This document shows positions 3,595 to 53,239 of a stretch of 64,000 nucleotides of DNA, one piece after another. Numbering within the stretch: position 1 is the stretch's first letter; every line of letters starts with the position of its first letter. Made by a program: the position numbers and the translations under genes. The stretch covers positions 274,787 to 338,786 of the forward strand of contig NW_015163605.1 of the NCBI RefSeq assembly GCF_001447785.1. The letters are read 5' to 3'. The DNA is from Gekko japonicus (lineage: Eukaryota). Under the pieces are notes generated by a model. It was given only the letters and a program-made list of their open reading frames with translations, was not told the origin of the DNA and did not search any database.

Positions 3595-3815
3595 ACATGT
3601 GGAGGAAAGTGCTGTCAAACTGCAGTTGACTTATTGCAAACCCCATGGGATTCTCAAAGCAGGAGACTAACAGAGGTGGTTTGTTGTTGCTTGCCTCTGC
3701 ATAGAAACCATGGACTTCCTTGGTGGTCTCCCATCCAAGTACTGACCAGGGCTGATCCTGCTTAGCTTCTGACATCTGATGAGATCAGGTTAGCCTGGGC
3801 CATCCAGGACAGGGC
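3595..3815 (-). mobile_element. 5S-rRNA-derived SINE, full length (other copies ~14990-15193 +, 29506-29650 -, 55997-56150 +, fragment ~23350-23415 -)
   Basis: Same head and tail as the 37576 copy; 7-bp TSD tcaatgg; inserted in the centre of a palindromic MITE (3545-3856). Confidence 0.85.
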
Positions 3816-6800
3816 TCAATGGGCTTAGAAGGGTGTAACTCTGCTCAAGATTGCTCAGGGACAACCAAAACATGTTGGTTCAGGGATGCACAAAAAACTT
3901 TAAGGATCTCATGTATACCCAAGTTAGGCTCCCTTGGTACCTTGCTATAACTAGACCCCAACTCATGTAGAAGAAAGTCAGAAAAGGCTGCTAATAAATC
4001 ATAGAACTACTACTTATGGCTTTACTTATTGTGACAAGGCAAACTGATCTCCAGAAATCTTCTGAGATGTTTTCCTGCCAAAGGATTGATACACACATCA
4101 TTTATGTCAGGGTTTGTTGTTTTGTTGTTGTTGGGTTTTTTGGGTTTGTGGAGAGTTTTTTGTTTTTTGTTTTTGAGAGAGAGAGAGAGGTGCCAGAACT
4201 CTCAGGAGGGGAATGAAGTTTTCAATCTGTATGCTGAAAATTTAGGAACTTTTAAACATTTTTCAAAGAATTTTGTCAAAGAGGTTCTGGAACTCTGTTC
4301 TGGCATGTTCCCCCAGAAAACCCCCCCTGATTTATGTCTAAAACACCTAAACACCACTTTTCTACCCAACAGACAGTTCACAAGAAAACCTAACAAAATC
4401 ACATGAATTATAAATCACAGTCACCGCAACATTTAAGAGCAGCAGCAACACAAGGCTTGGCCCATTAATCTCAAATGACAAACATGGCACTAGTGGAACA
4501 TCTCTTGGTGTTCTACAGGCTGTACGCAAGTACAGGAGAAGCTGTCACATGACCTCTACGGGCTGAACATGTGACTTGATTCCTTTGAGAGTTAGAATGT
4601 TTAAGGTGGTCTGAAGGTTCATTGTGATATTTGATCTGTGACGATTCATTCAGACGTACTAATCCCGGTGGTGAAGATGCCTGTGTGAAGATCTTTAGAA
4701 GCAGTTATGCTACTCAGAAGTAAGGAAAACAGAAGTCCAGAGGGCAGCTACAGAAGCTATCTGCAGCTCACAGACCCCATTACATACAAAAAGCAGAAGC
4801 CTATTATAGTAAGATCAAAGAAAGCAGATGTATAAGTGGTTTGGCCTTCTGCTTTACCACTTTAAAAAACAGCTTTCTATTTCAGAGACGAGCTAAGGCA
4901 CTTACAATTCTACTCATGCTTCAAAACACAAGGCCGCTACCTTGATTTCCACCCCATATGAGGAATACAGATGTTAGATAGTCTGGCGTTTTCTGCTTGC
5001 TTAGATGCCATGTAGTTCCTCTTTCTTGCTCTTTTAGAGTCCCCCCACCAAAAAAATTGACATAGCTGTTACATCCATTCCTTCCACAGGGAATTCTGTG
5101 TCACTAATTTCAACATGTAACCAAAATCTTTTTAAACATTCATACAGTACTGATTTTGTGTTGAGTGTTTAATTCAAAACCCACCAGGAAAGAGAATTCG
5201 GTCCCCAAGAAAAAGAGAAAATGCAGCTACATTGAGGGTAAGCTGTAAGCCAGAGGCAAACATACTGTAGTGGATCTTTTAGTTGAAACAGCAGCCCTAT
5301 TGGTCATGCACTTACAACTCTTCAGGATCAAGATTTCTATTACACAGCCTTTTTGGTCTGAACTTCTGTCAGATGACACCCCTCTCTGCACAGAGCCTGT
5401 CTACTACATGAAAAGGCAAACAAATTCTTGATTTTAGGATTTCAGGCATTACAGTGGCAGAATGTTGAAAAATCAACATGCTGTAACTACCACAGCTGCT
5501 CTTGCAAAGACATATTATAAGCTTTCAAACCATGTCTGCCTTGCTTTAGGTTAATGGTTAAAAGCAAGCTCTGGCTGAGAGACTGTAGACATCCCCCACA
5601 AGTCCTACAGCACTGCATTTATTTCTTCATAAGGATGAAGGTGCCGGCATTTGCAGAACCAAGCTTTTCAGTATCTGACACCCACCTGGTGAGAAGGAAA
5701 TTCTTGTTCTGTCGGTGGCTGATTTATTAAGATCAACTCATTGGTCCCCATTAGTGAAAGAAAGAGTATCTAGTATTCTGAACTCTTTTGAGGTTAGGAA
5801 TCTTCTTCCCTTATAGCAAAACTTGAAAGGTTCTGATTGTCTCTCAAAGTTATTAGTCCAACTTTTAAAGTTGTTGGAACCTGCCTTTGTGGCACAGTCA
5901 CATAAAATTAAATATTACAAAAAGAAAAACTATTGGTTCCATAAGGAATGTAGTCAATTAAACAGGGTACAACAAAAAATTCGAAAGGTTGATAGGAAGA
6001 ATCATGAACCAAGGTTTCTCATAATTCTAGTTCAACTTAAATCTAAATATAGGGCTGTAATTTGAAATAAAAAGCGTGACGCTGTAAGGAAAACTCAGAA
6101 TTCTTACTATGGCTGTTGAAAGTGACAATTCTAAGGAGTTTTGGCAGTTGGTCTTACTATCATCTAATTCCAGGGAAGTATTACTTTTTTGTATCTCTGC
6201 TCAAGTTTGGGGGCAACGTTTTACTAGATTTTTTGCCTCATCAACTCCAAATGAGGTGCCTTTTGCTCTTTCATCATAATTTTGCTCTTTGGCCACCAGT
6301 TTAAAGAGAAGAAGTTGAGAGCTTAATTAGAATTAGATATCTTACACCCAAAGTAGGTTATATTATACATGGGGGTATGGTACAGTGCCCCTGCTATGGA
6401 AGCAGCAGAAGGTGAGATGGAGGTGGGAAGAGATAGCGCCCACAGGCTGGTCATTGCTGTCCGTCCCCCTGTGTGATGGGCCATGTCAGTGCAGAAGTGC
6501 TGAGGCAAGAAACTGTATGCCCCCTCACACTGGGCAGACTCCCTTCCCACTTCACAGCTGAGTGACAATTAAAGTGACACCAAGGACCAGCTGTGAACTA
6601 AAAATAAAACTCCCACAAAACTAAAAATGAAACTCCCATTAAAGGGATGAAAGGGGAAGGAAGAAAACTGTGCTTAGCTGTGCCATTTTGAAGGTAGTGC
6701 TTCATGCCACCCACCTGCCTAGAGTAGAGGTTTGACATTGAAGCTCCACCTGCCTCATGTTATTTCTCCTTAAATCCAGAGCAAAAGATGGAAAGCCCCA

Positions 6801-9532: not shown

Positions 9533-9716
9533 GGTTTTCTAAGGATCATCCTCATATGGGCATCTGGTCCAATCTGAGAGAGCAGAAGCATAGTGTCTTG
9601 TAGCTCTTCCTCACATTCCTTCTTCTCCTCTTCAGTTGGCATGGAGGCATCCTCGTGTTCATCATCCAAAAATCGATAAAATAAGTATTTGTCCTGGAAG
9701 TGTTGTTCTTGATCCA
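9533..9716 (-). CDS. RAPGEF4: RAPGEF4 coding exon (exon 10), [61 protein letters not shown](P)
   Basis: 184 nt; ttctag|TG acceptor, CC|gtaagc donor; near-identical to recalled human Epac2. Confidence 0.98.
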
Positions 9717-10808: not shown

Positions 10809-12755
10809 CACCGGCGTAATCTTCATGGGGGCTCCGGGGCTTCAGCCCCCACCGAAATTACCCAGAAGCCCCGCCCACCCCTCACCCTCTCAGACCTTAT
10901 TATTCCCCCCTCGTAGATTTCATTCTAAACGCCGCCTCAGGGAATTGCTGTGCTGTCCCATAGGACAAAAGGAGCAGCCGCGGGAGATCCGCTCTGGCCG
11001 AGCCTGGCGGCAAAGGAGACCCCCCATCCCAAAGAGGCGGCTGCCGTTTCTCTCCCGGGCAAGAGAGAAAGAGAAGGAAAAGGGGAGGGGAAGAAGATGG
11101 AAGTGGCCAGACAGAGCAGCAAGCTGGTCGGGTGGGGGGTGAATGTCCTTTAATATATTCCAAGCCGAAGGATTTCGCCAGAGGAACAGCCCGCCCACGT
11201 TTGTTTTTTTTAAAGTGCAGCAGCAGAGCCCTGGGAGCCCAACAAATTCCTGCACCTAACCAGAGAATGGGGAACTTTGGCATCCTCGCCAACGCTGGCC
11301 CCAGAGACCTGAAGACTGCAAGCGCCGGGGGGGGGGCTCCGCTTGCAGGCAACCCCTCACAGGTGCCGCGCCGCCGTGCTCGGCAGCAGGACAACCACCT
11401 GAACAACGTGAAAGCCTCCTTGCCTAGGAACTGTATTCCCTTCTCTCCCCACCTTCCTCCTCTGCTCTGGCGCAAGGGCCTGAGACTGAGCGGGAACGGC
11501 CACGGCTGTTTCCCGTGACACCGAGCCGGGCCCAGCTGCTTGCAGCGGACTGGATCTGTGAAGAAAGGATCTGGCCTGTCCAAGTGCCAAGCCCCCCCTT
11601 CACCGCTTCTGCACCCCCTCCAGAGAAGAGCGATGCGATGCGATGCAAGCCGGCAAGCACAGACTCCCCCCTCCCCCCTCCCCGGCAGGCACCCAGGCCG
11701 CGGGCCGCGTCCAACTTCCCTCTCGATTCATTCCAGGCAAGGCTTACTATGCAAAGCAAGCCGGAGCCTTCCTCCTCCCATTTGCAACTGTTTATGCCTT
11801 GCTGCATTTTTTGCCGGCCCGGATTGGTCTCATATGCGAAGAGTAAGGGAAGAAGAAGGGGCAGGAAGTCTCCCCTTTGTCCCGCTCTGAAAGGGTCCGC
11901 TTTAGAGCATTGTGGGTTCTTCCCTGCTGCTCCACAAACCTTTGTCCCTTATCAACTAGCTGCAAAGTGGCATCTATTCAAAGTGAAAACATCGACTGAA
12001 TGGGCATCTTTCCCAGCTTCAAGGAAGGCACCAAAACATCTTNNNNNNNNNNNNNNNNNNNNNNNNNNNNNNNNNNNNNNNNNNNNNNNNNNNNNNNNNN
12101 NNNNNNNNNNNNNNNNNNNNNNNNNNNNNNNNNNNNNNNNNNNNNNNNNNNNNNNNNNNNNNNNNNNNNNNNNNNNNNNNNNNNNNNNNNNNNNNNNNNN
12201 NNNNNNNNNNNNNNNNNNNNNNNNNNNNNNNNNNNNNNNNNNNNNNNNNNNNNNNNNNNNNNNNNNNNNNNNNNNNNNNNNNNNNNNNNNNNNNNNNNNN
12301 NNNNNNNNNNNNNNNNNNNNNNNNNNNNNNNNNNNNNNNNNNNNNNNNNNNNNNNNNNNNNNNNNNNNNNNNNNNNNNNNNNNNNNNNNNNNNNNNNNNN
12401 NNNNNNNNNNNNNNNNNNNNNNNNNNNNNNNNNNNNNNNNNNNNNNNNNNNNNNNNNNNNNNNNNNNNNNNNNNNNNNNNNNNNNNNNNNNNNNNNNNNN
12501 NNNNNNNNNNNNNNNNNNNNNNNNNNNNNNNNNNNNNNNNNNNNNNNNNNNNNNNNNNNNNNNNNNNNNNNNNNNNNNNNNNNNNNNNNNNNNNNNNNNN
12601 NNNNNNNNNNNNNNNNNNNNNNNNNNNNNNNNNNNNNNNNNNNNNNNNNNNNNNNNNNNNGAGCCCAGCTCGCCCAGGCTTCTTGCCTCCTGCTGCCTTG
12701 GCAATGCCTCTGGCCCAGCCCCAGCCCCCGGGAAATTGGAAAGTCTACGCCCTTG
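10809..12755. mobile_element. ~1.95-kb non-autonomous hAT-like element, GC/CpG-rich, inserted in a CR1 3'UTR and spanning the N gap
   Basis: 8-bp TSD ctgtgtga (10801-10808 and 12756-12763); imperfect TIRs caccggcgtaatcttc / gaaagtctacgcccttg; subterminal cagcccc motifs at both ends. Confidence 0.75.
12043..12660. other. Assembly gap (618 N)
   Basis: Run of n characters. Confidence 1.
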
Positions 12756-12812
12756 CTGTGTGACACAGAGTTTTGGACTGGATGGGCCTTTGGCCTGATC
12801 CAACATTGGCAT

Positions 12813-12974
12813 CTCTTATGTTCTTATGTTCTTATGATTTATTCCCTGACATATTTCTTACACAGTTCAGACACACTTCTCTCAGCAAACATTTCTTATG
12901 TTCTTATGTTCTTATGATTTATTCCCTGACATATTTCTTACACAGTTCAGACACACTTCTCTCAGCAAACATTT
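12813..12974 (+). repeat. ~80-bp tandem duplication at a CR1 tail
   Basis: cttatgttcttatgttcttatgatttattccctgac...ctcagcaaacattt occurs twice. Confidence 0.95.
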
Positions 12975-13891: not shown

Positions 13892-14013
13892 CATGGTTGA
13901 GAACGCCTTCTTCCAATAATACTTGCCACATGCCCACGGCCTGTGTCCGTAAATGGACGCACGAACTTTGCTGCATCATCCAGTCTACTAGTTCTGTTCC
14001 AACGCAGCATTGT
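13892..14013 (-). CDS. RAPGEF4: RAPGEF4 coding exon (exon 9), [43 protein letters not shown] domain core
   Basis: 122 nt; ccctcag|A acceptor, G|gtaaga donor; phases fit both neighbouring exons. Confidence 0.98.
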
Positions 14014-16839: not shown

Positions 16840-17017
16840 GCTCTTTTTGTAGCAGGAAGTCCTTTGCATATTAGGCGACATACCCCTAATGTAGCCAATC
16901 CTCCAAGAGCTTACAGAGCTCTTCTTACAGGGGCTACTGTAAGCTGTTGGAGGATTGGCTACATTAGGGGTGTGTCGCCTAATATGCAAAGGACTTCCTG
17001 CTACAAAAAGAGCCCTG
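16840..17017. mobile_element. Palindromic MITE with ~75-bp inverted arms
   Basis: ctctttttgtagcaggaagtcctttgcatattaggcgaca... / ...tgtcgcctaatatgcaaaggacttcctgctacaaaaagag. Confidence 0.88.
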
Positions 17018-17138
17018 CTTGTTTTCAGTTTCCAAAGAAAGAGGAATTGTTTGCTCTATAGAATTCTACAGGGAGAGGTTCCCAAACCCAGTGAAGGCCC
17101 TGGTAGAAATGAGCTGGGCACATTTGGTCGCTCAAGTA

Positions 17139-17499
17139 TAGGGTTGCCAGGTCCCTTCATTGCCGTGGCAGGGGGATTTGGGGGGCCTTCCGGGGGTGGG
17201 CAGGGACATTGTGTGATATGCTGATCTCACCTGGAAGTGACATCAGCATATTGGGGGAGATGATGCTCTATGATAAAAATGGCCTCAAACTATAGAGTTT
17301 TGCTCAAAAAGTAGAGTGTCCCCCCCCCATGTCACTGACATGCTGACATCACTTCCGGGGGATGTCAGCACACTGCCTGCAGTGTCACTGTTGGGGGTGG
17401 TGGTGGGAATTTCCTCCTGCCGGCCAGCTGGCCAGCAGCAAGCAAGAGCCCATGAAAGCGGTGGAATCCTCTGCCCCCACCTGGGGAATGGTATCCCTA
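17139..17499. mobile_element. Older TAGGGTTGCCA-type hAT MITE (relatives at 3107-3443 and 37137-37508)
   Basis: TSD ctcaagta/ttcaagta; the 37137 copy has cttatcac/cttagcac; shared central ctctatg...atagagttt motif. Confidence 0.8.
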
Positions 17500-18159
17500 T
17501 TCAAGTAGTAGGGAGAAGATTTAAAGTCCCTGTTTTATTCCATTCAAGACCCTTCAGATTTTATCCCCGAGAAGGAAGTGGGCACCAGGAAACACATCAG
17601 CAGGGTCACATGCTGGGATGCACTGAGACGGACAGTAGTCTTGTCACAAACCTTAACCTTCTACCATTCAATAATCAAAATATACTGTTGACAAATTTGG
17701 GGCTATATAAGAATCCTTTTCACATATTCTAATAAGGTAGAAAGAGCAACCATTAAGACAGGGGTGAAGTATTGCAGACTGACTACTCTAAAACTAATTA
17801 TGGCCAAAGACCAGCTCAGAAATACCAGCAATGGTACATTAAAAAAGTTGCATAAATTACATCAAAATGAGCAAATATAATCCATTAGATTACTATAGAA
17901 CAAAAATAATCTCTAGTAGCTGCACAGCATCTGGCCACTTTAGCTGTGATCCAAAGCTTATGATCTGAGAGGAGATCATTAGGTCTACATGGAATTTTTT
18001 GAAGAATAGGAATAATAAAATTATGAGATCACAATCAAAAGGGCAATATAATAGGACATGCCCAGCAGTTTCAACTCCCCCACTTTCACAAGGCTATGTT
18101 GAAATGTATGTGCATAAACATATCCTCACACAGGGCACTCTGCATGATCAGGAATATCA

Positions 18160-19325
18160 AGGATTCCTGGAGCATGCAGAGACAGGTGTAGTGAGGTGGC
18201 ATTACTATGCAGATGACACTCAGCTTTATTTTTCCTTAACAGGTGAACTGGATGGGTGTACAGAAGTCCTGAAAAGATGTCTGAAGAAGGTAATGGTTGG
18301 ATGAAGACCAATAAACTGGATCTCAACCCAGAGAAGACTGAGATACTCTCAGTCAATGACAATGCTACTTGATGACTGAGGAGTCAGCCTGTCCTAGAGG
18401 GGTTTCACTCCATCTCATAGAAACAGATTAATAGATTGGGAGTGCTTCAGCCAAAATCTCAATGCTCAGGTCTCCTTTGTCGCACAAAGCACCATGACCT
18501 GGCCATGGTGATACATGCACTGCTCACCTCCAGGTTAGATTATGAGGGTTGCCAGCTCTGGGTTGGGAAATACCTGAAGATCTGAGGTATGGGACCTGGG
18601 AATGAAGGGGTTTGGGGAAAGGAGGGACCTCAGTGGAGTCTAATGCTATAAAGCCTACCATCCAAAGCAGCTATTTTCTCTAGGGGAACTGATCTCTGTA
18701 GTCTGAAAAGCAACTGTAATACTAGGAGATCTTCAGACCCTGCCTGGAGGTTGGTAACCCTGTATTGCTGTAATGCGGTCTATGTGGGGTGTCTTTGAAA
18801 ATGGTGCAGGAATTTCAAAATGTAGCAGCCAGGCTACTATTAGGGGCTGGGTCATGAATTGTTATCACGTCCATGTCCGTAGTGAAAAATCGTCATAGCT
18901 GCCCATCTGTTTCCTGGCACAATTCAGTGTGTTGGTTCTTACCTATAAAGCTTTAAACAGTTTTTTTTAATGTGCTGGCACCTCACCTGCGGAATATCTC
19001 CCCCATTGAGACTTGCTTGGTACCTAATATATTCCTGTTCAGGAGCATTTCTTTTTACCCAGACTTTTAATGAAGGGGGTGATCTAATAATTTGTTTTAT
19101 TACAATCAGCTTCTAGCCTGAGTACTGTTATGTGGACCAGTTAGGCTGCCAAATGTTTTATTCTCTGGGTTTTTATGTGCTTTTATGCTTCTGGCCTTTT
19201 ATTGGCTGCTTCATAATGGCTGTTAATTTTTATAATTTTACGCCATTATGCTTTTCTGTTATTGTATTTTTGTAAGCCGCCTTGAGCAGCTCTCTGAAGA
19301 GGTGACATATGGATGGTCTAAATGG
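18160..19325 (+). mobile_element. Decayed L2-type LINE fragment, interrupted by a MITE at 18545-18761
   Basis: RT motif YADDTQLY, then LNPEKTE-like sequence; 3' tail tgtaagccgccttgagcag. Confidence 0.75.
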
Positions 19326-19771
19326 AATACAAACACACACATTTCAAGGTAAATTTGGGGTTGGAGCTTATTGCCAAGATCCTGCTCCCCACCATATGTT
19401 TGTTTTACCCCAATTAAAACATCTCAAAAGGTTGTTTATAAAATGGTGCAAGAACATAATATCTCCACTGAACTTGCTAGAATAATACCTGGAACCTTAA
19501 ATTTAAATGAAAACAAAATAACTGGGAGGGGGAGCAGTATCTCTCAGTGGAACTCTAGAGGAAATCTGCCTGGCCAGTTCACTGATGCTGCTTCGTTGCC
19601 AAGTGATGATTAAAAACCAAAACAAAACCTAGAATAGTTCAGTGTCCCCCCAAAACCACTTATCTTACAGAACTCTATTGGTGCTATGGTGGCGAGATAA
19701 TAGTTGAAAAGTATAAACCTTGTTTAAATAAACTTCTGCTTAGCATTTTGGATGATTTGTTTGTTATGACT

Positions 19772-20014
19772 TAGGGTTGCCAGGTCTCCCCTAGCTACCA
19801 GAGGGGGATGGAGGTACGGTAGCCAGATCCAGGTTGGGAAACTCTTGGAGATTTGGGGATGGAGTCTGGGGAGGACAGGGATCTCAGCAGGGTAAAATGC
19901 CAGAGAGTCAATTTCCAAGCATCCATTTTCTCCAGAGGAACAGATATCTGTAGTCTAGAGAGTAGCTGTAATTCCAGGGGATCCCCAGGACCCACCTGAA
20001 GGCTGGCATCCCTA
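19772..20014. mobile_element. Abundant GGGTTGCCAG-terminated MITE (copies at 8222-8456, 18545-18761, 23045-23225, 23640-23882)
   Basis: Shared body ccattttctccag.ggaac.gat.tctgtagtct.gaga...gtaattccagggg; termini resemble the hAT MITEs above. Confidence 0.75.
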
Positions 20015-20844
20015 TGAAGGCCCTGCAGATTTTGTTTTCTTTATTGTTGTGGGGCCCTTTGGGTATGATTGGTGCAAAGAGTGCAATTCACATGCTTTAA
20101 AAATGTAGAAAAAGAGTATTTACAGCTTTACAAAGAACTGCAGCTGGATGAAAATCCGCTTTGATCCTGTAATTCTGACAAAGAGATCTGTATAACACAA
20201 AAGACTGGAGGTGGAATGAAATATATCCTTTAATCTATTTTGCTTCTATGAAATTAAATAATTCCTACTTCCTCAATTACATTTACTAAAGAAAAAAAAT
20301 CATCCTTGTGGTATTTAATTCAATTTCTTCCACTTCCTAAAAAGAATGAGCTCAATTGCTGTTATACATTAAAATCCATATCGGAAGGAAAGAAAAAGAC
20401 ATGAAATTCCCCTGCCTTCAAAACTCCTATCCCGCTGAAGCCATACAAATAAATCATTTCAACAAGGCACTGCTGCCACCACCAGGATACACAGAAGCAT
20501 AAACTAAAAACAGAAATTTACTGTAAATAAACTTGCCAAACCTGTAACAGGCAGATACTCTGGCTACAATTCAAGACATAACCTCACATAAAATGTATCA
20601 TTGGATACATTATGGAACCCTGATCAAAAAGGTATCCCATGTAGTTTTCTGTCCTACTTAAACCAGGTTGCCTGACCTAGGTGTGGGGATGTTAGCAGGC
20701 CCATTATTGGTAGCTACAATGGGCAATACTACACATAATACTGCTACCATGAATACTACTGCCTTGGATCCTGCACCTTCTTTCCTCTTTCGCTCCTCTG
20801 CGTCCCCTGTAGACTGGTCCTCTGCTGCAGAACTGTGTTCTTCA

Positions 20845-21178
20845 GGGACTAGGTGGGCAGCTCTTTGGTCTGAAGCAGTATTTTCAGAAGTTTCAGTCCA
20901 GTGGCACCTTTAAGATCAACAAAGTTTATTTAAGGTATGAGCTTTTGTGTGCATGCACACTTCCTCAGATACCCACCTGGATCTATCTTCATGGAAGGCA
21001 CCACATGAAGCCACATGGAATGGAACTCTATCAACCTTATGGTAAGTTCCATTTCACTATATCTGAGGAAGCGTGCATTCACACTATATTGGAGGAAGCG
21101 TGCATTCACACGAAAGCTCGTACCTTGAATAAAACGTTGTTGGTCTTAAAGGTGCCACGGGACTCAAGCTTTGTTCCT
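20845..21178. mobile_element. Penelope-like element remnant with inverted terminal copies and hammerhead-like motifs
   Basis: ggcacctttaagatcaac...cacttcctcagatac is followed by its inverse, atctgaggaagcgtg...gaaagctc...ggtcttaaaggtgcc. Confidence 0.7.
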
Positions 21179-21823
21179 CAGGCACTAGGCACTTTCTCTA
21201 ATGCAAGACCAATCCTGATGGCACCTGGGTTTTGGCCATTGACTGGATGGGCCATTGGCCTGTATACAACATGGCTTCTCTTACATTCTTATGTCTTTGG
21301 AAGAGCCAAAGAGTTCCTAGCACAAGAGGAACATGCTCCGCAGAGGAGGACCACCTCCACTACAGAAGGACAGTGCAAGAAGAAAGAAAATACAGGACCC
21401 CACCTCCATACTTATCAGTTAATCTTACATACCCAGCACCACATTGAAATCAGGCCAGAATTACTCATTTATTTCAATTATACACCACCTTTCTCCCCAG
21501 TGAGAAACTGAAGTGGTTTACATTGTTCTCCTCTCTTCCACTTCATCCTCACAACAACCACAAGCAGGAGGTTGGGGTGAGACTGTGTGGCTGGCCCAAG
21601 TTCACCCCATAAGCTTCCATGGCAGAGTGGGGATTTGAAGACCTCTAACCACTGCACCACACTGTCTTCTGATGGAGTTCCGTGGGCTGACCTCTGTCTT
21701 GGTTGCGATTACAGTAATCACCCAATAAGTCCAGGTCTTTGGAGATCTCCAGGGATGGCAAGGCTCAACTAAAAAACACAATATGATATAAAAAAAAATC
21801 CCATGCAAACATATCACATATAC

Positions 21824-21930
21824 CTGTATGTCTTCAGGTGATATTTGCGGTCTCTTATCATGTGAGGTGCTCTGGAGAGGATTGCATTCCGTAATACCTT
21901 CCCAGCTCTCAGGATTTTTTCTGATGGAAC
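21824..21930 (-). CDS. RAPGEF4: RAPGEF4 coding exon (exon 8), [35 protein letters not shown](R), start of DEP domain
   Basis: 107 nt; ctccaag|GTT acceptor, AG|gtatat donor; near-identical to recalled human sequence. Confidence 0.98.
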
Positions 21931-22269
21931 CTTGGAGAGTGATGAAGAAGCAACAAAGAAAACAGTGAGCATATTTTAAATGGCCATGGCTTCTAGAAAG
22001 TCAGGATACGACACCAGTCTTGGTTACGATAGTGCTCTTTGCATAAATATTCTTCCGCAATTCTGTTAACACAAAGCTTTCATACAATAATGGGGCTTGT
22101 AAGCTTTACTCTAGTTATATGTACCTGTCTATCTTCCGGCAATGTTGATGCATCACCAATTTATTGCTAAAGCAGCATCCTGGTTAGTAATGTTGCAATG
22201 GCACAGGATTCAAGGCACCCCATTCTAAGAATTTATATCCTGGTGCACTGAGCTTACAGATCACTGCTC

Positions 22270-22610
22270 AGATCCAAAGTTCTATAAGTGGAGAGGTTTG
22301 TGGTCCATTTGCCTGGTCCATGCATTTACATTTTTGACAGACCACCCACGGACGGTGATTTGTTTTCAGCTGTCCATTGGGTCCACTGGGTGGTCCATGG
22401 GCCAGACATGTTGGTGCCCAGGGAACCTTTTGAAGCCATTCTGCTGCTGCTGTGCGGTGCCAGTGAGTTCGGGAGGCATTTAAATGCCTTCTTAGCCCAC
22501 TTCCGGGTTGCACCAATCACGGACCTCACGAACCACGAACTGGTTCGTAAATCAGGAAAGTCCATGGAAGTTTGTGTTTCATAAAATTCACAAACCACAA
22601 ACCTCCATGG
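22270..22610. repeat. Probable DNA-transposon relic in intron 7
   Basis: Inverted ends gaggtttgtggt / accacaaacctc; internal cacgaacc repeats. Confidence 0.5.
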
Positions 22611-22831
22611 CCTCCATCCCTGATAGGCTCCATCTGTGAGATCAAAGGATCCAACTCGTATTCCAGAGTATTTGATTCGTGCACATTGTATGTAATGGGG
22701 TTACAGAAGGGGGGATAAATCACATGGCATCACTACTCTGATATCATACTAATAACATCTCAATATTTCCTTCGTGAATTATTTCCATTTATCTATCAGT
22801 CTGGGGCTGTACTATAACTACCACCCATTAT

Positions 22832-22885
22832 CTCTGTAATGGTTTTATCTGGTCAAAGTGGGATGTGATGCTCAATGAAAGGAGT
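22832..22885 (-). pseudogene. RAPGEF4: Pseudo-exon: decayed RAPGEF4 exon 7, TPFIEHHIPL*PDKTITE
   Basis: Exactly 54 nt after an intact acceptor (attttatttttcag). Aligns without gaps to recalled human TPLIEPHVPLRPANTITK. TGA at 22855-22853 replaces the Arg codon, and the donor reads GAG|ataatg. Confidence 0.88.
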
Positions 22886-25785
22886 CTGAAAAATAAAATG
22901 GGGGGGAGAAGTAATATAAAAATGAGAATAAAAATAAATGTGAAAGCAGGCGGTTTAAAATAAATGAACATACTAAAACAAATTGGAGGCTGAAGGGAGT
23001 CAACAATTCTCTGAGCCCCACTTTGCCTCGTAGGACATCATAAGGTGGGATTCAACCTTCCACTCCTGGAGATTGGGGGGGAGGACAAGGACTACAGTTG
23101 GGTACAGTACCATAGAGTACACTTTCCAAAGCATACATTTTCTCCAGGGGAACTGATCTTTGTATTCTGGAGATGAGCTCTAATTCCAGGGGATCCCCAG
23201 GCCCCAACTGAGGTTGGCAAACCTCATTTTAGGAGTCCTAATAGCTCAAAAAATGGTGCATGACTTTAAAAACAAATAAATGTTTTTTAGAAAGATCTAT
23301 CCATATCCCGTTGCGTACTGAATAAATATTCTGTGCTCTTCATCCTAGTTGCCATGGTGACCCCATAGTGTTTCAGAGGAAGTTTGCCATTGTCTGCTTC
23401 CACATCACAACCTTGACATCACAACCCATTATTACTATGCTACCTCCCCATAGGCCTCCCAAAAAAATGGGGGGGAGATAACGTTTGCTGATTTCCCCTC
23501 CCCGCAAGGCAGATCTCCAGCTTTTCACTTAGACACAATGCTCTAATGGTCAGCTGGCCGGTGGTGGGCTGAAGCTCCAATGGTCAGCTGGCCAGTGGTG
23601 GGCTGAAGCCCCCAAAACCAGGGGAACCCACACCCCAACCTGGGGGCTGGCAATCTTATCTGGGGATCCCCTGGAATTACAGCTTGTCTCCAGACTACAG
23701 AGATAATCTCTCCTGGAGAAAACTGATACTTTTAGAGGGTGGACTGTGGCTTTGTACTCCACTGAGGTCCCTGTCCTCCCCAAGCACCACCCCCAAATCT
23801 CCAGAAGTTTCCCAACCTGGATCTATCAGCCCTACCCCCCCCCCATCTCCCACTTGTGGCCAGGGGAGACTTGGCAACCCTACCACTGATCCATGGGGAA
23901 ACAATTTCTAGGGGCACTGATGACTGCAGCTGGAGGGAAGAGACAGGAATGTTACAATTTATTTCAGTACAGATCTGATGGCTCTGCATGGGATTCAAGC
24001 CAGAATCATTAATGTGGAAAATAATGGGACCATTGTCTGCACATGATATGGGAATGCACTAATCTCATTTCTTCTGGCTTTCGTTTGTTTTATGATGTAA
24101 TGCTGATTTAATGCTGTTGCTGGGTTATTTCAAATTGTGCATTGATTGATGTTTATTGTTTATGTTGTTTGAAATATGTTGTAAGCTGCCTCAAGCACTT
24201 TTCTGGAGAGGCAACCAAGAAGTGATTTATCAAGTGATTGATTTTTGGAAGTACAATCCTAATCACACTTAACGGGAAAGCCCATTACAATCAGTGGAGT
24301 TTACATCTCAACCACTGTGCACAGGATCATGTAAAAACATCTTTTGCAAATAAATGTAACACAGGCATTAAAGCATTTTTGTGTCTTTCCTTCAATCTTA
24401 TTAATTTCTGAAATATTTGACACCAACCTGTTTTTTGATTGCATCTTTAATTTCATTGTACTATGTACAATGACAATAAAGTATATTATTATTTCCCCAG
24501 GAAAGTGGGGCTATCACAATTATGCCACAGATTTATCAATTATTTTGTTGGCTTTGTATTATATTTGACTCTGTAACATCAGTTTCAGAATTATTTGCAG
24601 GCAGGTGTCTGCAGTATTCTTTATACGATTCTATGACTGACTACACAAATCTTGGTTTTTAAAAGGTTTCCTTTTCCAATTTTTCTGCCAAAGTTGAAAG
24701 AATAATTGTGAAGATTCAAGGAATTCATTTTGCCATTTTCAGTCACAGTTGCCAAATGTGCTACTCACGTGCGCGTGACTTGTCAGGAGAACTGAACCTT
24801 GAAAAGGGCTACTGTGTTTCTCACCATAATTACTTTTCCCAGCAACTGTCCAACTGCAAAAACTAATGGAGCACGTTTGCACGTCTTTATGCACACTGAT
24901 CGAATCCCACAGAATACATGGCAAAGGGACAAGAGCATCCGATGCGTTTCTGACCTTATCGCATCTTGCAATCCAGTGCCACTCTTGACGCAATCATTTT
25001 ATGCAGTCCCCAAAAATGTTCTCAGATTCCAGCATCTAACACAGTTTTCTCCCACATTCAGCATATTAGCATTTTACTATGGAATTTATGACTTCTTATT
25101 ATTTCCTGCCTGGTGTACCTCTGAGTGGATTAGATCCAGACTAAGTTTTTGGTTGTTGTAATTTGTAAGTGCCTTCCATCACCAGAACAGAACTTTCCTA
25201 CCTTCCCCCTCCCAATGCGGCACATAGAGCTCCCCATAATGCTGCTTTGGAGTGACAGGAGATCTTCAGGAACAGCATGAGGTACAGATCAGGGGTCCAC
25301 AGCAGGAAAGAGGAACTGGTGGAAATGACATTTCTCCTTCCGTTAGTAGGAAATTGTCTGGATCGAGCCCATCTGTTTGAATCTGCTCTTCTGTCCTGTA
25401 CCTTTGTGAATGAACCCCTGAGCTGACTTAATATTAGTTGTTGCTGTATTGCTTCTAGGCTGACTTGGTTCTCTTGCTAACTTGGTCTGTTTTATTACTC
25501 ATTCTTTTTTTAATGTTAACTGTTCTTTTTGACGATATTGCTCTGAACAGTTCTCCCTGGGCAGCGGTATATAAACCACCCACATAAACGAACAAATGAA
25601 TTTAAATATAAACGATGGTGCCATGCCAAGATATCTCATGCTACTTTAATCAATTATTCTCATATGTCCATTATTTATTTGTTGAAAACAGAACGATCTC
25701 ATGCTACTTTAATCAATTATTCTCATATGTCCATCATTCCATGTGCAGACATGTGACTTTTAAAAAATGCAACTCCTCAAAACAT

Positions 25786-25964
25786 TGTTGTTGTTGTTCA
25801 GTCACACAGTCGAGTCCGACTCTTCACGACCCCATGGACCCCGTCACGCCAGGCCCTCCTGTCTTCCGTTGTGCTCCAGATTTTGCTTAATTTCATGTTC
25901 GTTGCATCGATAACACTGTCTAACCATCTCATCCTTTGCCGTCCCCTTCTTCTTTGACTTTCAA
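25786..25964 (-). mobile_element. RTE/BovB LINE 3' end
   Basis: (caa)n tail; encodes RRRGRQRMRWLDSV...GVVKSRTRL; 9-bp TSD tcaaaacat (25777-25785 and 25965-25973). Confidence 0.92.
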
Positions 25965-28905
25965 TCAAAACATGCCACCACCTAAAACAGCGCTGTATCA
26001 GACTGTTGTATTGCTACTGTGGAAGCAGATTCTCCTATAAAGTGCTTTATTAACAAAATATTATTTTAATTTAATTTTTTTTTCAGTCTTGCCATATGGA
26101 TCCACAAGATGCTTGGTTCACAACCAATCTTATGGAAACCAAGCGCATGATGAATAAGTAAAGCCTAAAATGTTTAAATTAGTGTGTGCATGCATGCACA
26201 TATGCACACATGCGCGCGCACACGCAAAACAACCACTAATGCAACAGGTTCATATTAAAAATAGCCATTGCTGTTCATAAGCTAACTGAAATAAAACATG
26301 TTTTCCAGTTTTCCTAAACGTGAAAACCCAAGCTGGCCTGCTGAGATTCTTTGGCAAGAGTCAATGACCAAGGAAATAAAAAGAGGTCACCACCCTGTCA
26401 GTTATGCCTTGCCAGCAGAATGTGAGGGGCAGCGTTTCAAATGCTTCCAGTTAGCTTGGCTTAACTGGGATCTGAGGGAATTCTTGGAAGATGATTAGTT
26501 GAAATTTAGGACAACCAGGCCAAGGGCCATCCTAAATGCATCCATGTATATTTATTTATTTGTCTACACATTTATATTTAAAGTAAAGCTTGGGGTGCTG
26601 TTTTGTTTTTTTTACAGAAAATTGAGCACAGAGGTGAGTGGAGCCAATGAGCTCACTCTTCACTTTGTTATGTCACATTGCTTTAAAGACTTTGACCTAG
26701 GCTGACTACAATACCAGAAAAGAACTCAGCTAGAAGAAAAGTGATGAAAGCAGCAGAAAACAGCATCATAATGCAAGGAGGAGAAGGGTTTCGCTACCTT
26801 TACCCAAGTGCACTGTTTTCTGGAGGGAAAAACAGACCTCAGCTTTATATGTGAATTAGCAGACATGACAACAAACACTTATTGGTTCCCCAAGATGTCT
26901 AGTTTGGCCCTTAACCTCCCACACAGTTCAGATGGAGTCACAGGTATCAGTTGTCAAGCAAAGGCCTATACCAAGAATGACCAACCAGCAGCTAGAGTTT
27001 CTGCCCCCCACTCCTGATCAGAAAGGCCTCGCTATGGAACACCATTAGGCACACCCTCTTGTTCACCTCACCTCTTCAAGTTCAACTGCTCCTTGCAAGC
27101 CCATTCAAACACTAAAAGGGCTATATATGTAATGTACCATGTGCAAGAGTGACACAGACTCATATAATGGGCATCTTCTTGTGGCCCACTTACCAACATG
27201 GTAAGACTATGTTTTATCACGGCACAATGGCAACCTTGGGGAGGGTGCTCAGTTTCTAGTTTTCTCCAGATTGCAGAATTCCTGTTCGACCAGGCAACAT
27301 ACACTTCTTTGGTTAGAGACAATAGTTTTCAAGAGAGCTGAAAGCAACACGAGAGTGATTCAACTAGCCATAGTGTACACACCTATTTCATTTGGCTCCC
27401 AGTTCATTCCTGTCAATTATGCTTGGAATTAAAATGTGCAGAAGTGGGTAAGAATACATATACTTCAAAAAAACCACCACTCTTTCACACTGCCCCTTTT
27501 AAACTCTCTGAAAGAAAATGACTGTCTCCAACCCTAGACAGGTAAACGTTGTGAGACTGAGGTTGATATAGGACCAATGGGGAGCAATTTCAGCCCTAAA
27601 GCTGTGGAGCATGTAATGCAAAGATCTGGTTGCTCTCCTTTTGGTCTGAATATCCTGAGAAAAAGTATTTGTTTATTTATTTAATATTGCTTTTTCACCT
27701 TTTTCACCATCATCACTGCCATGGAATAGGGTCTAACACAGGCTCTATGTCGTGTTTGATCAGTCTTTCTCTGACTTTTATGCCAGCGGTGCTCTAGCCA
27801 CCTTCTTATGAAAGAAATCTCTCTGTGTCTGAATAGCGGCATCAAACAACTGTCTTAATACTGTAAAAAATTATGAATGTTAAAATTTTCCTCAGTAAAA
27901 TCCAAAAGCTCTCAGTTATCTTGGTTTACATACAGTGTCTGATTAAATTCACCTTAATCTATTTTATTCCTAACTGGATCACTTCAGAATAAACTTAGTT
28001 TCAACCCTTCAACATTTCCACAAGTTTGTTACATACACTTCAGCTGCAGGAAGATAATTGCAACAACGTCCTTTTCTACACTGCTGGCCTTTTGCACTGC
28101 TGAAATGTGGGAATATGGAAAGTGGAAATATATATATAAAACACTATATCCACACTGAAACTCCACAATACTTGCTATAATTTTGTGCAGTTAAAAACGG
28201 CCATAGATAATTTCTTTTAAACGACAGAAGGACAACACAGTAAACACTAGAATGCAATGGTTTGACAGCAACGTTGTCTGATTCTGAACAAATGATGTCA
28301 GTTAAAGAAAAAACAACCCCAAACCCCTTTGTATGAAAGCAGCCTTAATAAGGGTTGGATCCCATTGAAAAGGTCCAAACATGTATGTATGGGTGTGATT
28401 TACACCAATGCTGTTCTCATCTAGCAGCATCTGTTTCCCCACCATGCACCTCCAGAGTTCCCCTGCCTTCCAGCATTTTGGAGCATTTCAGGAGATGGGA
28501 AGCAGGGAAGTTGAGCTTCTGCACACAGAAATTTTATATATGATCCAACTCCATATAAGTAATCAAATTGAATAGGTTTACATCATTATATACAAAGCAA
28601 TCACAGTTCATTTAGTAAATGCTTGTACTAATACCAAATATTGGGAGGATTCATGGGTACATTTGTTCTTTAGGAATCCCTTTCTTCTCCACTATGGAGA
28701 TTTCGGTAGCTACTCTGAAATTCTCACATTTCTCCCCTCAGGTTCCTAGGTTGAGCAAACAGCCAAACTTTTATACTGTGACAGGGTGGGAAACAGATAA
28801 CTAGGGTGGTTCAGTCACAGAAGAAAAGAAAAACGGAGGGAAAATCTTGCCTCTGACTCGGAGGGAAGTGGACGGGGTCGTCATAGCTGCATTTCAATAT
28901 TTTAC

Positions 28906-28944
28906 CTTATATAAAGAACAAACTGATGACAAGTCAAGGATCAT
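28906..28944 (-). CDS. RAPGEF4: Candidate alternative first coding exon of RAPGEF4 (MILDLSSVCSLYK), phase 0, in frame with exon 8
   Basis: ATG at 28944 with an in-frame TGA two codons upstream, 13 open codons, donor AAG|gtaaaa; lies in a stretch with no recognisable TE. Confidence 0.45.
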
Positions 28945-30379
28945 ATGTCAAGACAGACCTATTTGTCACCAGCTCCTCCACACTTTGCATGTAAAGAGTT
29001 TTTCAGTTTACTTTCCTTTCCCAATATGGCATTTGTTTCCAAACATTCATAGCCTTTGAAATAATATGGAACAGCCAATTCACTGACAGTGATACAGATG
29101 TGTAGTGGAAGTGGGGAGTGGGGAGAATTCTCAATCTCAATCACGTGGCAATTCACATCATACCATTGTGGTCAAGATCACCGTGTCCATATGTTCGAGG
29201 TCACTGGGCTTCAATCTTAGGCTTGTGACCTTCCGGTGGGTTGTGGAGCGTCATGAGATTGAATGTTTTTCCCAATACGTTCCCCCTCCCCAGCCTTGCC
29301 TCCCAGGATGCCAAAGAAACAGTTGGGTATATAAATATTTTATGTAATTTTTAAAATATGTTTTCTCACTTTCTCTGGTTCTACGGTTTTTCTACAAACC
29401 TGGGGGTTGCCTCAGGTTTGTAGACCGTCCCCCCAATCAGTACATGGCCCCACTGCAGATTTGTTGATCTATACTCTGTTCAGAATTGTGTGTGTGTGTG
29501 TGTGTAAAGTGCCACCAAGTCACAGCTGACTTATGGATATCCCATGGGGTTTCCAAGGCAAGAGACAAATGGAAGTGGTCTGCCATTGCCTCCCTCTCTG
29601 TAGCGACCCTGGAGTTTCTTGGTGATCTCCCATCCAAGTACTAACCAGGCTAGTCTTGTTGGTCAGCTGCAAGAAGGATGAGTGGGGCAAGGGGGGTAGC
29701 TTGGAAGGAGCAGGAAACTCTTGACCTCCTTGCATTTTGGGGTGAAGAGAGAATCCAGGAAGCCCTGCGATCCTCTCACAGGAATTATAACTCTTATAAG
29801 AGGATTTCAGAAGAGACGTCCAGGCGTGGCCATAAGTAGACACCTGAGGAATGCTGCACAAAAACAAAAATGTTGCGACTTGAGTAAAAAATGACTGGTA
29901 TCTCATAATTCACAATCTGGTAATTCACCAGCCAGGTATCCGGTTTACAGGGAGTTACACAGCACCCTGAAAGGAGAAGATAGTGTGAAGCCCAAGAGAA
30001 GCCCAAGAGATTGGCACACAACATCACCTTCGAAGATGATGAGCCAGCCTTTTGTTCATCGTAAGGTGTTTTCCCAAGAACTGTTTTGTGATGAGGCTCC
30101 AACGACAGTGAACTTGGAGGACATCTTCCCAAATGTTCCTGGCAAGTTATGCATGCATTTCTCAACTGTGGTAGCATTCTGGAGGGTTGTTTGTTTGCCT
30201 GTTTGTCTTTTCTGACAGATTATTAAACCACAGCTGCTGCATCATTAGCACACTGTCATTTATTGCACAGCATATCATATCTGGTGTTAGTAGATGTTTC
30301 ACAGGTTGTCATGATGGAAAGTAAAGTAGCTTCTGAAGTCTAATGTGATGTAAGTAAATAAATATATAGTCCTATGAAG

Positions 30380-32606: not shown

Positions 32607-32671
32607 CTTGCTGCAGTGTTTTGAGATTGAACACAGACTGCTACTAGACATATTATCCTTGTCAGGCATCC
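32607..32671 (-). CDS. RAPGEF4: RAPGEF4 coding exon (exon 6, extended 65-nt form), (R)MPDKDNMSSSSLCSISKHCSK
   Basis: Acceptor ttccttgtag|GG completes the AGG codon begun in exon 5. MPDKDN matches human IPDKEN. Frame stays open to a phase-0 donor AAG|gtaaat. Confidence 0.9.
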
Positions 32672-34248: not shown

Positions 34249-34321
34249 TGTCATTGTTGGAGCTAGTTTCCATAACACCATAAGGAGGAGCCAGAAGTCC
34301 TGACATATATTGACGATATTT
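34249..34321 (-). CDS. RAPGEF4: RAPGEF4/Epac2 coding exon (mammalian exon 5), [24 protein letters not shown](R)
   Basis: 73 nt; acceptor ccccag|AAA, donor GAC A|gtaagt. Translation matches recalled human [25 protein letters not shown]. Phase 0 in, phase 1 out. Confidence 0.97.
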
Positions 34322-37575: not shown

Positions 37576-37640
37576 GCCCTGACGTGGATAGCCCAGGATA
37601 GCCTGATCTCATCAGATCTCAGAAACTAAGCAGAGTTAGC

Positions 37641-37676
<36 letters not shown>

Positions 37677-38113
37677 TCAAGGGTTGCTACATAGAGGCAG
37701 GCAATGGCAAACCACCTCTGAACCCCTCTTGTAGGGCCGCCAAGTCCCCCCGGGGGGCGGATTTCCCCAGCTTTGGAGGCCCGATTTCTGCCGCCGCGGA
37801 ATCGGGCCCCGGGGGAAACCCCACCCCGGCGTGCACGTCACCCGAAGGTGACGTGATGACGCCGGCCATGCTGGGGGTGGGGCCACAGCCATCTGAGGGG
37901 AAAACTCTATGTTTTCCCCTCAAATGGCTGTGGCCCCGCCCCCAGCGTGCCTGGCATCATCACGTCACCTCCGGGTGACGTGCATGTGGTGTGTGCGCGC
38001 GCGCTGAAGACGCTGTCCGGGAGCTCCCTGCCGCAGACGAAAAACAACTTGGCAACCCTACCCTCTTGCCTTGAAAGCACTATGGGCCATAAATTGGCTG
38101 TACCTTGACAGCA
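37576..38113 (+). mobile_element. 5S-rRNA-derived SINE with RTE-like tail, interrupted by a hAT MITE
   Basis: cctgatctcatcagatctcagaaactaagcag...tggtcagtacttggatgggagacc is the 5S internal control region; tail ggcaatggcaaaccacctctg...cttgccttgaaa. Confidence 0.85.
37732..38060. mobile_element. Young CpG-rich hAT MITE, same family as 33270, opposite orientation
   Basis: TIRs tagggccgccaagt / acttggcaacccta; perfect TSD ccctcttg. Confidence 0.92.
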
Positions 38114-52329: not shown

Positions 52330-52580
52330 ATAAGAACGTAAGAACATAAGAGAAGCCAACGGTGGATCAGGCCAATGGCCCATCCAGTCCAACACTCCGT
52401 CACACAGTGGCCAAAAATACCAGATGCCATCAGGAGGTACACCAGTGGGGCCAGGACACTAGAAGCCCTCCCACAAGCACCAACAATACAGAGCATAACT
52501 GGCCCCAGACTGAGAGTTCCTATCTACGGTCCTTGTGGCTAATAGTCACTGATGGACCTCTGCTCCATATGCTTATCTAA
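52330..52580 (-). mobile_element. CR1 3' end
   Basis: (cataagaa)n tail followed by the reverse complement of the CR1 3'UTR. Confidence 0.85.
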
Positions 52581-53239
52581 TTCCCTCCAAAAGCCCTATC
52601 ATTAACAGTCTTGCTCAGGTCATGTAAAGGGAAGGCCATGGATTCCGTGATGGAGTCAATCCCTCTCATGCTGGGTCTTCCTCTTTTCCTACTACCTTCA
52701 AATTATTGCCTTTTCCAGGGAATCTGTCTCCTCATGATGTGACCAAAACACAATAGTCTTAATGTAGTCATTTTAGCTTCTAGGGACTTAGTTGTCTTTT
52801 TGGTAGTCCATGGTATCCATAAAACTCTCCTCCAACACCTGTCCTGTTAATAATGGGGAAACCAGGGGAACTGCGATCCCCTGCGATCTCCCCGAAATGA
52901 CCTCTGCTTGTGGCTAATAGTCACTGATGGACCTCTGCTCCATATGCTTATCTAATTCCCTCCAAAAGCCCTATCATTAACAGTCTTGCTCAGGTCATGT
53001 AAAGGGAAGGCCATGGATTCCGTGATGGAGTCAATCCCTCTCATGCTGGGTCTTCCTCTTTTCCTACTACCTTCAAATTATTGCCTTTTCCAGGGAATCT
53101 GTCTCCTCATGATGTGACCAAAACACAATAGTCTTAATGTAGTCATTTTAGCTTCTAGGGACTTAGTTGTCTTTTTGGTAGTCCATGGTATCCATAAAAC
53201 TCTCCTCCAACACCTGTCCTGTTAATAATGGGGAAACCA
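52532..53239 (+). repeat. 333-bp direct duplication with a 42-bp spacer
   Basis: 52532-52864 and 52907-53239 appear identical by eye. Confidence 0.95.

Follow-up and report, generated by a model that had tools for sequence, protein, structure and literature searches.

What has become of exon 7 of RAPGEF4, the cassette exon of the gene encoding Epac2, in the genome of Gekko japonicus? A stretch of 64,000 nucleotides of contig NW_015163605.1 (the window, to which all coordinates below refer) holds, between exons 6 and 8 of this gene, a 54-nt segment that resembles the exon, contains an in-frame stop and is followed by AT instead of GT. The original prediction described it as a fossil exon, inactivated twice over, and offered a poison exon as the alternative. 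We consider it probable that the segment is the remnant of cassette exon 7, decaying in a RAPGEF4 gene that still works, that its donor is dead and that the exon is always skipped.

RAPGEF4 and the exon 7 segment in the window

Five other exons of RAPGEF4 were identified on the minus strand, each intact and bordered by canonical GT-AG sites: exon 5 (34249..34321, 73 nt; 23/24 residues identical to Heteronotia), exon 6 in a long form of 65 nt that ends in phase 0 (32607..32671; 21/21), exon 8, which starts in phase 0 (21824..21930, 107 nt; 35/35), exon 9 (13892..14013, 122 nt; 40/40) and exon 10 (9533..9716, 184 nt; 59/61). Their 551 nt contain neither a frameshift nor a stop, and 178 of the 181 residues are identical to Heteronotia binoei (177/181 for Paroedura picta and likewise for Sphaerodactylus townsendi). 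Geckos provide the top single-domain matches for the exons of the window, and exon 8 matches the Epac2 chains of PDB entries 1O7F, 2BYV and 4F7Z with E-values of 6e-16 to 1.5e-15. One residue of exon 9 and one of exon 8 are common to the window, Heteronotia, Paroedura and Sphaerodactylus and differ from Eublepharis, a weak hint that the source of the DNA may belong among the non-eublepharid geckos. The first exon of Epac2B was sought as well and not located.

Exon 6 (minus strand, 32607-32671) is 15 residues longer than the 20-nt mammalian exon. The 65-nt form is also found in birds and turtles, and frogs and eels have one of nearly that length; because the long form is present in birds, turtles, amphibians and eels, it is in the mammals that exon 6 appears to have been shortened. 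A short form occurs in two bird models (P0076, P0088).

The exon 7 segment lies at 22832..22885, 901 nt from exon 8, in line with the roughly 900 bp given originally. Read on the minus strand (22885-22832), its 54 nt translate to TPFIEHHIPL*PDKTITE and are in phase 0 at both ends. This is the translation that had been claimed, although the strand had gone unstated and the plus-strand translation bears no relation to it. The Heteronotia model P0004 has the peptide TPFIEHHIPLRPAKTITE immediately ahead of exon 8, and the segment is identical to it at 16 of 18 positions. When all 127,888 six-frame 18-mers of the window were scored against the Heteronotia peptide, the segment reached 83 and the runner-up 29 (7/18 identical). 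A single high score among so many 18-mers means that the segment is neither a chance match nor one of two copies; a second exon-7-like 18-mer was not found among them. The proposed orthology to RAPGEF4 exon 7 is thus borne out by the 16/18 match, the position between exons 6 and 8, the length and the phases, and by comparison of protein sequences 22832-22885 can be regarded as the orthologue of that exon. The mammalian exon 7 peptide given in the original prediction agrees with named mammalian proteins; the common placental peptide is identical to the remnant at 11 of 18 positions.

An intact 3' splice site precedes the segment (22886..22974), with its AG at 22887-22886, a pyrimidine tract and 89 nt upstream that are free of AG; it reads ...ccccattttatttttcag/. 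With a crude weight matrix, this acceptor takes rank 14 among the 4,387 AGs of the minus strand, so that the description of a strong, intact acceptor holds at the resolution of that matrix. At the other end the boundary is GAG/ataatgggtg, the sequence after the remnant being ATAATGGGTG. As predicted, AT takes the place of the GT donor, with an A at +1 (22831). The remaining positions of this dead 5' splice site (22824..22831) are donor-like: they score 3.05, within the top 2.5% of the 3,461 GT sites. Splicing of the U12 AT-AC type was rejected on inspection, as the site is unlike the U12 donor and the acceptor of exon 8 is AG.

In the exon and the 100 nt upstream of it (minus strand, 22832-22985) eight YCAY motifs are found, three of them close together at 22878-22858; the mean for the window is 2.7, and 1% of 6,308 windows reach eight. 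A Nova silencer is one possible interpretation, and it would agree with skipping restricted to the brain; the count is a post hoc test, and exon 8 with its upstream 100 nt likewise has eight motifs. No link between Nova and Rapgef4 exon 7 was found in the literature, and Rapgef4 is absent from the main text of PMC2014790. Short interspersed repeat copies in both orientations flank exons 7 and 8 (around 23050-23880 and at 18545-19990). Among them are inverted pairs as long as 101 nt (79% identity), and one pair spans both exons, an arrangement that could favour looping or circularisation. A stretch at about 25780-25900 (minus strand) ends in a CAA-repeat tail, which we take to resemble the 3' end of a BovB/RTE-type element. 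Degenerate 5S rRNA matches at 37580-37692 (plus strand, 46.7 bits) and 3699-3821 (minus strand, 44.7 bits) are probably pseudogenes or the heads of 5S-derived SINEs in introns.

Distribution of exon 7 and the lesions of the gecko copy

A total of 246 named RAPGEF4 proteins were compared, and 19 unnamed matches were excluded. The exon 7 peptide stands before exon 8 in 143 of the 246 and is absent in 87, and the other 16 lack the start of exon 8. The 143 proteins represent 43 distinct peptides, from geckos, other lizards, turtles, birds, mammals and amphibians, with a version of 17 residues in eels. Both the included and the skipped isoform are annotated in Eublepharis, Anolis sagrei, Rhineura, birds and Xenopus. 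The exon is intact in Heteronotia, Paroedura and Eublepharis, which are all three of the gecko genera having exon 7 models. Since these three keep the exon, its loss can be placed inside the geckos and is, by this comparison of protein models, recent. The predicted loss of the exon 7 isoform in the lineage is in this way retained as the main reading, with a more precise placement. Protein sets hide stops, and a species with an identical lesion would resemble a skipped isoform; in Sphaerodactylus, Lerista and Thamnophis (P0003, P0016, P0051), for which the sole models seen are without exon 7, loss and skipping look the same at the protein level.

The peptide belongs to a variable linker; column identity is 65% for exon 7 as against 90-95% for exons 5, 8, 9 and 10. 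In the Heteronotia protein it occupies residues 195-212, ahead of a Pfam DEP match that covers 237-304. An AlphaFold2 model of that protein is of low confidence throughout (mean pLDDT 41) and was set aside as evidence on disorder of the linker. Pro9, Pro12 and Lys14 are mostly conserved among the exon 7 peptides. Positions 6-11 read P-x-x-P-x-R in placental mammals and turtles, which resembles an SH3-ligand motif, and geckos have His at position 6.

Three differences separate the remnant from Heteronotia: Arg11 has become a stop, Ala13 has become Asp, and the +1 position of the donor is changed. Two of these, the stop and the donor, are the lesions that had been reported and both are confirmed; the third is a further derived change that had been passed over. 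The in-frame TGA (22853..22855; read as 22855-22853) is indeed located at the position of the mammalian Arg, which is also Arg in other geckos. Among the 43 peptides codon 11 encodes Arg in 33, His in seven, Cys in two and Gly in one, which suggests a mutable CpG codon. An origin of the stop by CGA>TGA, and with it a CGA ancestor in geckos, would be plausible, but the His and Cys of other lineages are one step from CGY and not from CGA. Codon 13 (22847..22849) is GAT, for Asp, where other geckos have Ala; each of the 43 peptides has Thr, Ala, Val or Ser there, and none has Asp. As to the donor, its read-through in the frog model P0108 is V-M-G and the corresponding residues of the window are I-M-G; this pair fits what a single G>A at +1 within a conserved donor context would produce.

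All three changes are substitutions; none is an indel, none lies in a homopolymer, and their clustering is unremarkable (p=0.42). Residues unlike those of all compared geckos number 2/18 in exon 7 and 2/181 in the flanking exons (Fisher p=0.04). Against exon 6, which is equally variable, the excess is non-significant (2/18 vs 0/21, p=0.21). Two changes in about 42 non-synonymous sites amount to 0.047 per site, with a 95% range of 0.006-0.17 that is too wide for dating. The flanking exons are intact beside the AT donor and the TGA, so the exon carries its lesions within a host gene that is preserved.

The course of events that we favour starts with a G>A change at +1 that would have abolished the donor. 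An exon without a donor would no longer be defined, exon 6 would be spliced in frame to exon 8, and the skipped protein would be the only product. Released from selection, exon 7 would then have acquired the stop and the non-conservative Ala>Asp change, and the acceptor would still be intact as little time has elapsed since the loss. We prefer loss of the donor before the stop, since a normal isoform would result immediately, whereas a stop arising with a live donor would send all exon 7 transcripts to decay, which to judge by the mouse would include those of islet and adrenal and about 75% of the transcripts in CA1 cell bodies; the reverse order, with the stop first and the donor loss as a later compensation, is possible. 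We infer this order, and likewise that the changes are real and fixed and that the exon is skipped in vivo.

Skipping leaves the protein in frame, as had been argued from the phase 0 flanks: joined translations of exons 5-6-8-9 and of exons 8-9-10 contain no stop, and exon 6 continues into exon 8 in frame. The skipped form is also a natural one. It is found as Epac2A2 in the mouse (PMC3701594), in a gecko model (P0003) and in the chains of PDB 2BYV and 4F7Z, in which the exon 6 peptide runs straight into exon 8. Indeed, the full-length crystal constructs of Epac2 (2BYV and 4F7Z, with 1O7F in the same numbering) correspond to Epac2A2, the isoform without exon 7, and the exon 7 segment is accordingly absent from the structures found; a PDB search with the 20-residue read-through peptide gave zero matches. 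Because exon 6 is 65 nt long, the skipped gecko protein keeps a linker of 22 residues, compared with 25 in mammalian Epac2A1 and seven in mammalian Epac2A2. If exon 7 is a spacer, the long exon 6 may thus cushion its loss and help the animal to tolerate it. That the loss came free of cost is not obvious, given that the exon has been retained from eels to mammals.

Alternative explanations

The apparent lesions could be an assembly error or a rare allele of the sequenced animal, in a species that keeps a working exon 7. The window does show features of a draft: a run of 618 Ns (12043-12660) with an 80-nt copy of 98% identity beside it (12810-12974), and a perfect tandem copy of 375 nt (52532-53239, 100% identical), all of which are possibly artefacts of assembly joins. 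The intact exon in each of the three other gecko genera with exon 7 models points the same way, as does the lack of any protein 100% identical to exon 10 among the best 120 of 1,174 database matches. An error would, however, have had to introduce three separate substitutions, free of indels and outside homopolymers, two of them transitions if the ancestor was CGA, while leaving the five flanking exons, 551 nt in all, without a stop or frameshift. A recent rare allele is disfavoured in turn, since three changes on one haplotype would need time to gather. We regard this explanation as unlikely.

Slightly less likely still is that the exon has remained in use as an unproductive one. Its acceptor would be joined to a cryptic donor, or intron 7 would be retained, and the stop would expose the transcripts to nonsense-mediated decay, leaving less Epac2 where the exon was formerly included. 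By the rule that a stop must lie more than 50-55 nt ahead of a later junction to provoke decay, any transcript that included the TGA would qualify, with the exon 8/9 junction 128-236 nt downstream. The acceptor outscores that of exon 8 (6.2 vs 3.0 in the crude matrix), and GT donors exist at +7, +10 and +108. Skipping, retention and use of cryptic sites are all known outcomes of splice-site mutations (PMC9311317), and regulated decay has been described as viable for ancient exons (PMC2697156).

The specific proposal that the cryptic donor at +7 (G/gtggta, with its GT at 22824-22823) makes a poison exon has little support: the site scores -3.3, a value equalled by 39% of the 3,461 GTs, and the TGA would be redundant. 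The two nearby donors (22820..22824; +7 at 22824 and +10 at 22821) both shift the frame and lead to a stop in exon 10, 55 nt from its start, and use of the +108 donor or retention of the intron leads to a stop at codon 30. The TGA is therefore unnecessary for the decay of any of these products, and its presence is no sign of selection. Of the other two candidate donors, +10 scores -0.3 (equalled by 14% of GTs) and +108 scores 1.1 (7%), against 3.3, 5.7, 3.0 and 5.1 for the real donors of four exons. Since the real donor of exon 10 itself scores only -0.2, like the +10 site, the matrix leaves room for some use of the latter. A young remnant would be expected to retain its acceptor anyway. Like a poison (AS-NMD) exon, the segment is intronic, has an acceptor and carries an in-frame stop with a later junction more than 55 nt downstream. 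It differs from such exons in having no usable canonical donor at its end and a stop that is not conserved in relatives; a stop-bearing state was seen in none of those compared, and the protein models of three gecko genera read exon 7 as coding. Some leaky use of the acceptor is likely, whereas a selected switch is unsupported. The stronger version, in which an ancient coding cassette has become a regulated decay switch, with the old inclusion signals driving the acceptor together with a cryptic donor or a retained intron 7, strikes us as distinctly improbable. If it were true, islet, adrenal and neuronal cell bodies would now lower the dose of Epac2 instead of making the exon 7 isoform.

It is very improbable that the window shows a duplicate or sex-linked RAPGEF4 in the course of degeneration, or that the locus has an intact exon 7 elsewhere. 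The window shows exons 5-10 only and the 618-nt gap is unread, yet that gap separates exon 9 from exon 10, where exon 7 would not be expected, the window has no second exon-7-like 18-mer, and the other five exons are intact with canonical splice sites. Rescue by A-to-I editing, for which each lesion does hold a suitable A (the donor A would yield a GU-like donor and UGA a Trp codon), hardly merits belief, as none of the 25 longest of 198 inverted repeats at 17000-29000 covers exon 7 or its donor, the local fold is weaker than that of shuffled sequences (z=+1.5; 191/200 shuffles fold as well), the most stable duplex partner found in some 6 kb (-36.6 kcal/mol) is equalled by 24/40 random controls, and editing disfavours the context of the two As, each of which is preceded but not followed by G (PMC11276115).

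Exon 7 in other systems and the possible consequences of its loss

The decaying cassette exon that we favour for the gecko has a counterpart in the mouse, where exons 6, 7 and 8 of Rapgef4 measure 20, 54 and 107 nt (PMC8820740, supplement row). Both have an orthologous 54-nt, 18-residue phase 0 cassette ahead of a 107-nt exon 8. The mouse exon is regulated, whereas that of the gecko has a stop and lacks its GT; exon 6 is 65 nt in the gecko against 20 nt in the mouse, and intron 7 is 901 against 325 nt. In the mouse, Epac2A1 and Epac2A2 are both present in brain, the skipped Epac2A2 being brain-restricted, and Epac2B contains exon 7 (PMC3701594). The simple contrast of the original prediction, with exon 7 included in brain Epac2A1 and skipped in Epac2A2, needs correction in the light of this pattern. 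The exon-7-bearing isoforms Epac2A1 and Epac2B include those of the endocrine pancreas and adrenal (PMC3701594; table in PMC8016657), and inclusion of the exon is 75% in CA1 cell bodies and 25% in dendrites (PMC8820740). Because mouse Epac2B has exon 7 and the skipped form is restricted to brain, the largest effect of a loss would be expected in the isoforms of islet and adrenal.

Loss of conserved cassette exons in single lineages has been called frequent on the basis of human, mouse and dog (PMC2231371). As in those losses, one lineage would have given up an alternative exon that leaves the frame unchanged and that its relatives conserve. The gecko exon is of greater age, occurring from eels to mammals, and its remnant can still be read, lesions included. 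It also resembles the tCONDELs (bioRxiv 10.64898/2026.09.16.752114), in which conserved coding sequence leaves the transcriptome via splicing and not by deletion of DNA. The tCONDELs were derived from human and chimpanzee RNA-seq, with HMMR as a partial shift in skipping, whereas the gecko case is read from DNA and would be complete. No report of an exon 7 loss in reptiles or of a gecko RAPGEF4 case was found in the literature, most subscription journals lying outside the search; in a phylogeny of Epac (PMC8534922) the strings "exon", "splic" and "gecko" are absent.

Since the process itself is already known and frequent (PMC2231371), what the locus adds is specific to this gene. No function is assigned to the 18 residues in the passages on Epac2 that we consulted. 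If the changes are fixed, the gecko would be a naturally occurring knockout of a single splice form of Epac2. A viable lineage without these residues would imply that the segment is dispensable, at least in the presence of a long exon 6 and a linker of 22 residues, and a gecko lacking exon 7 would offer a close comparison with the geckos that keep it.
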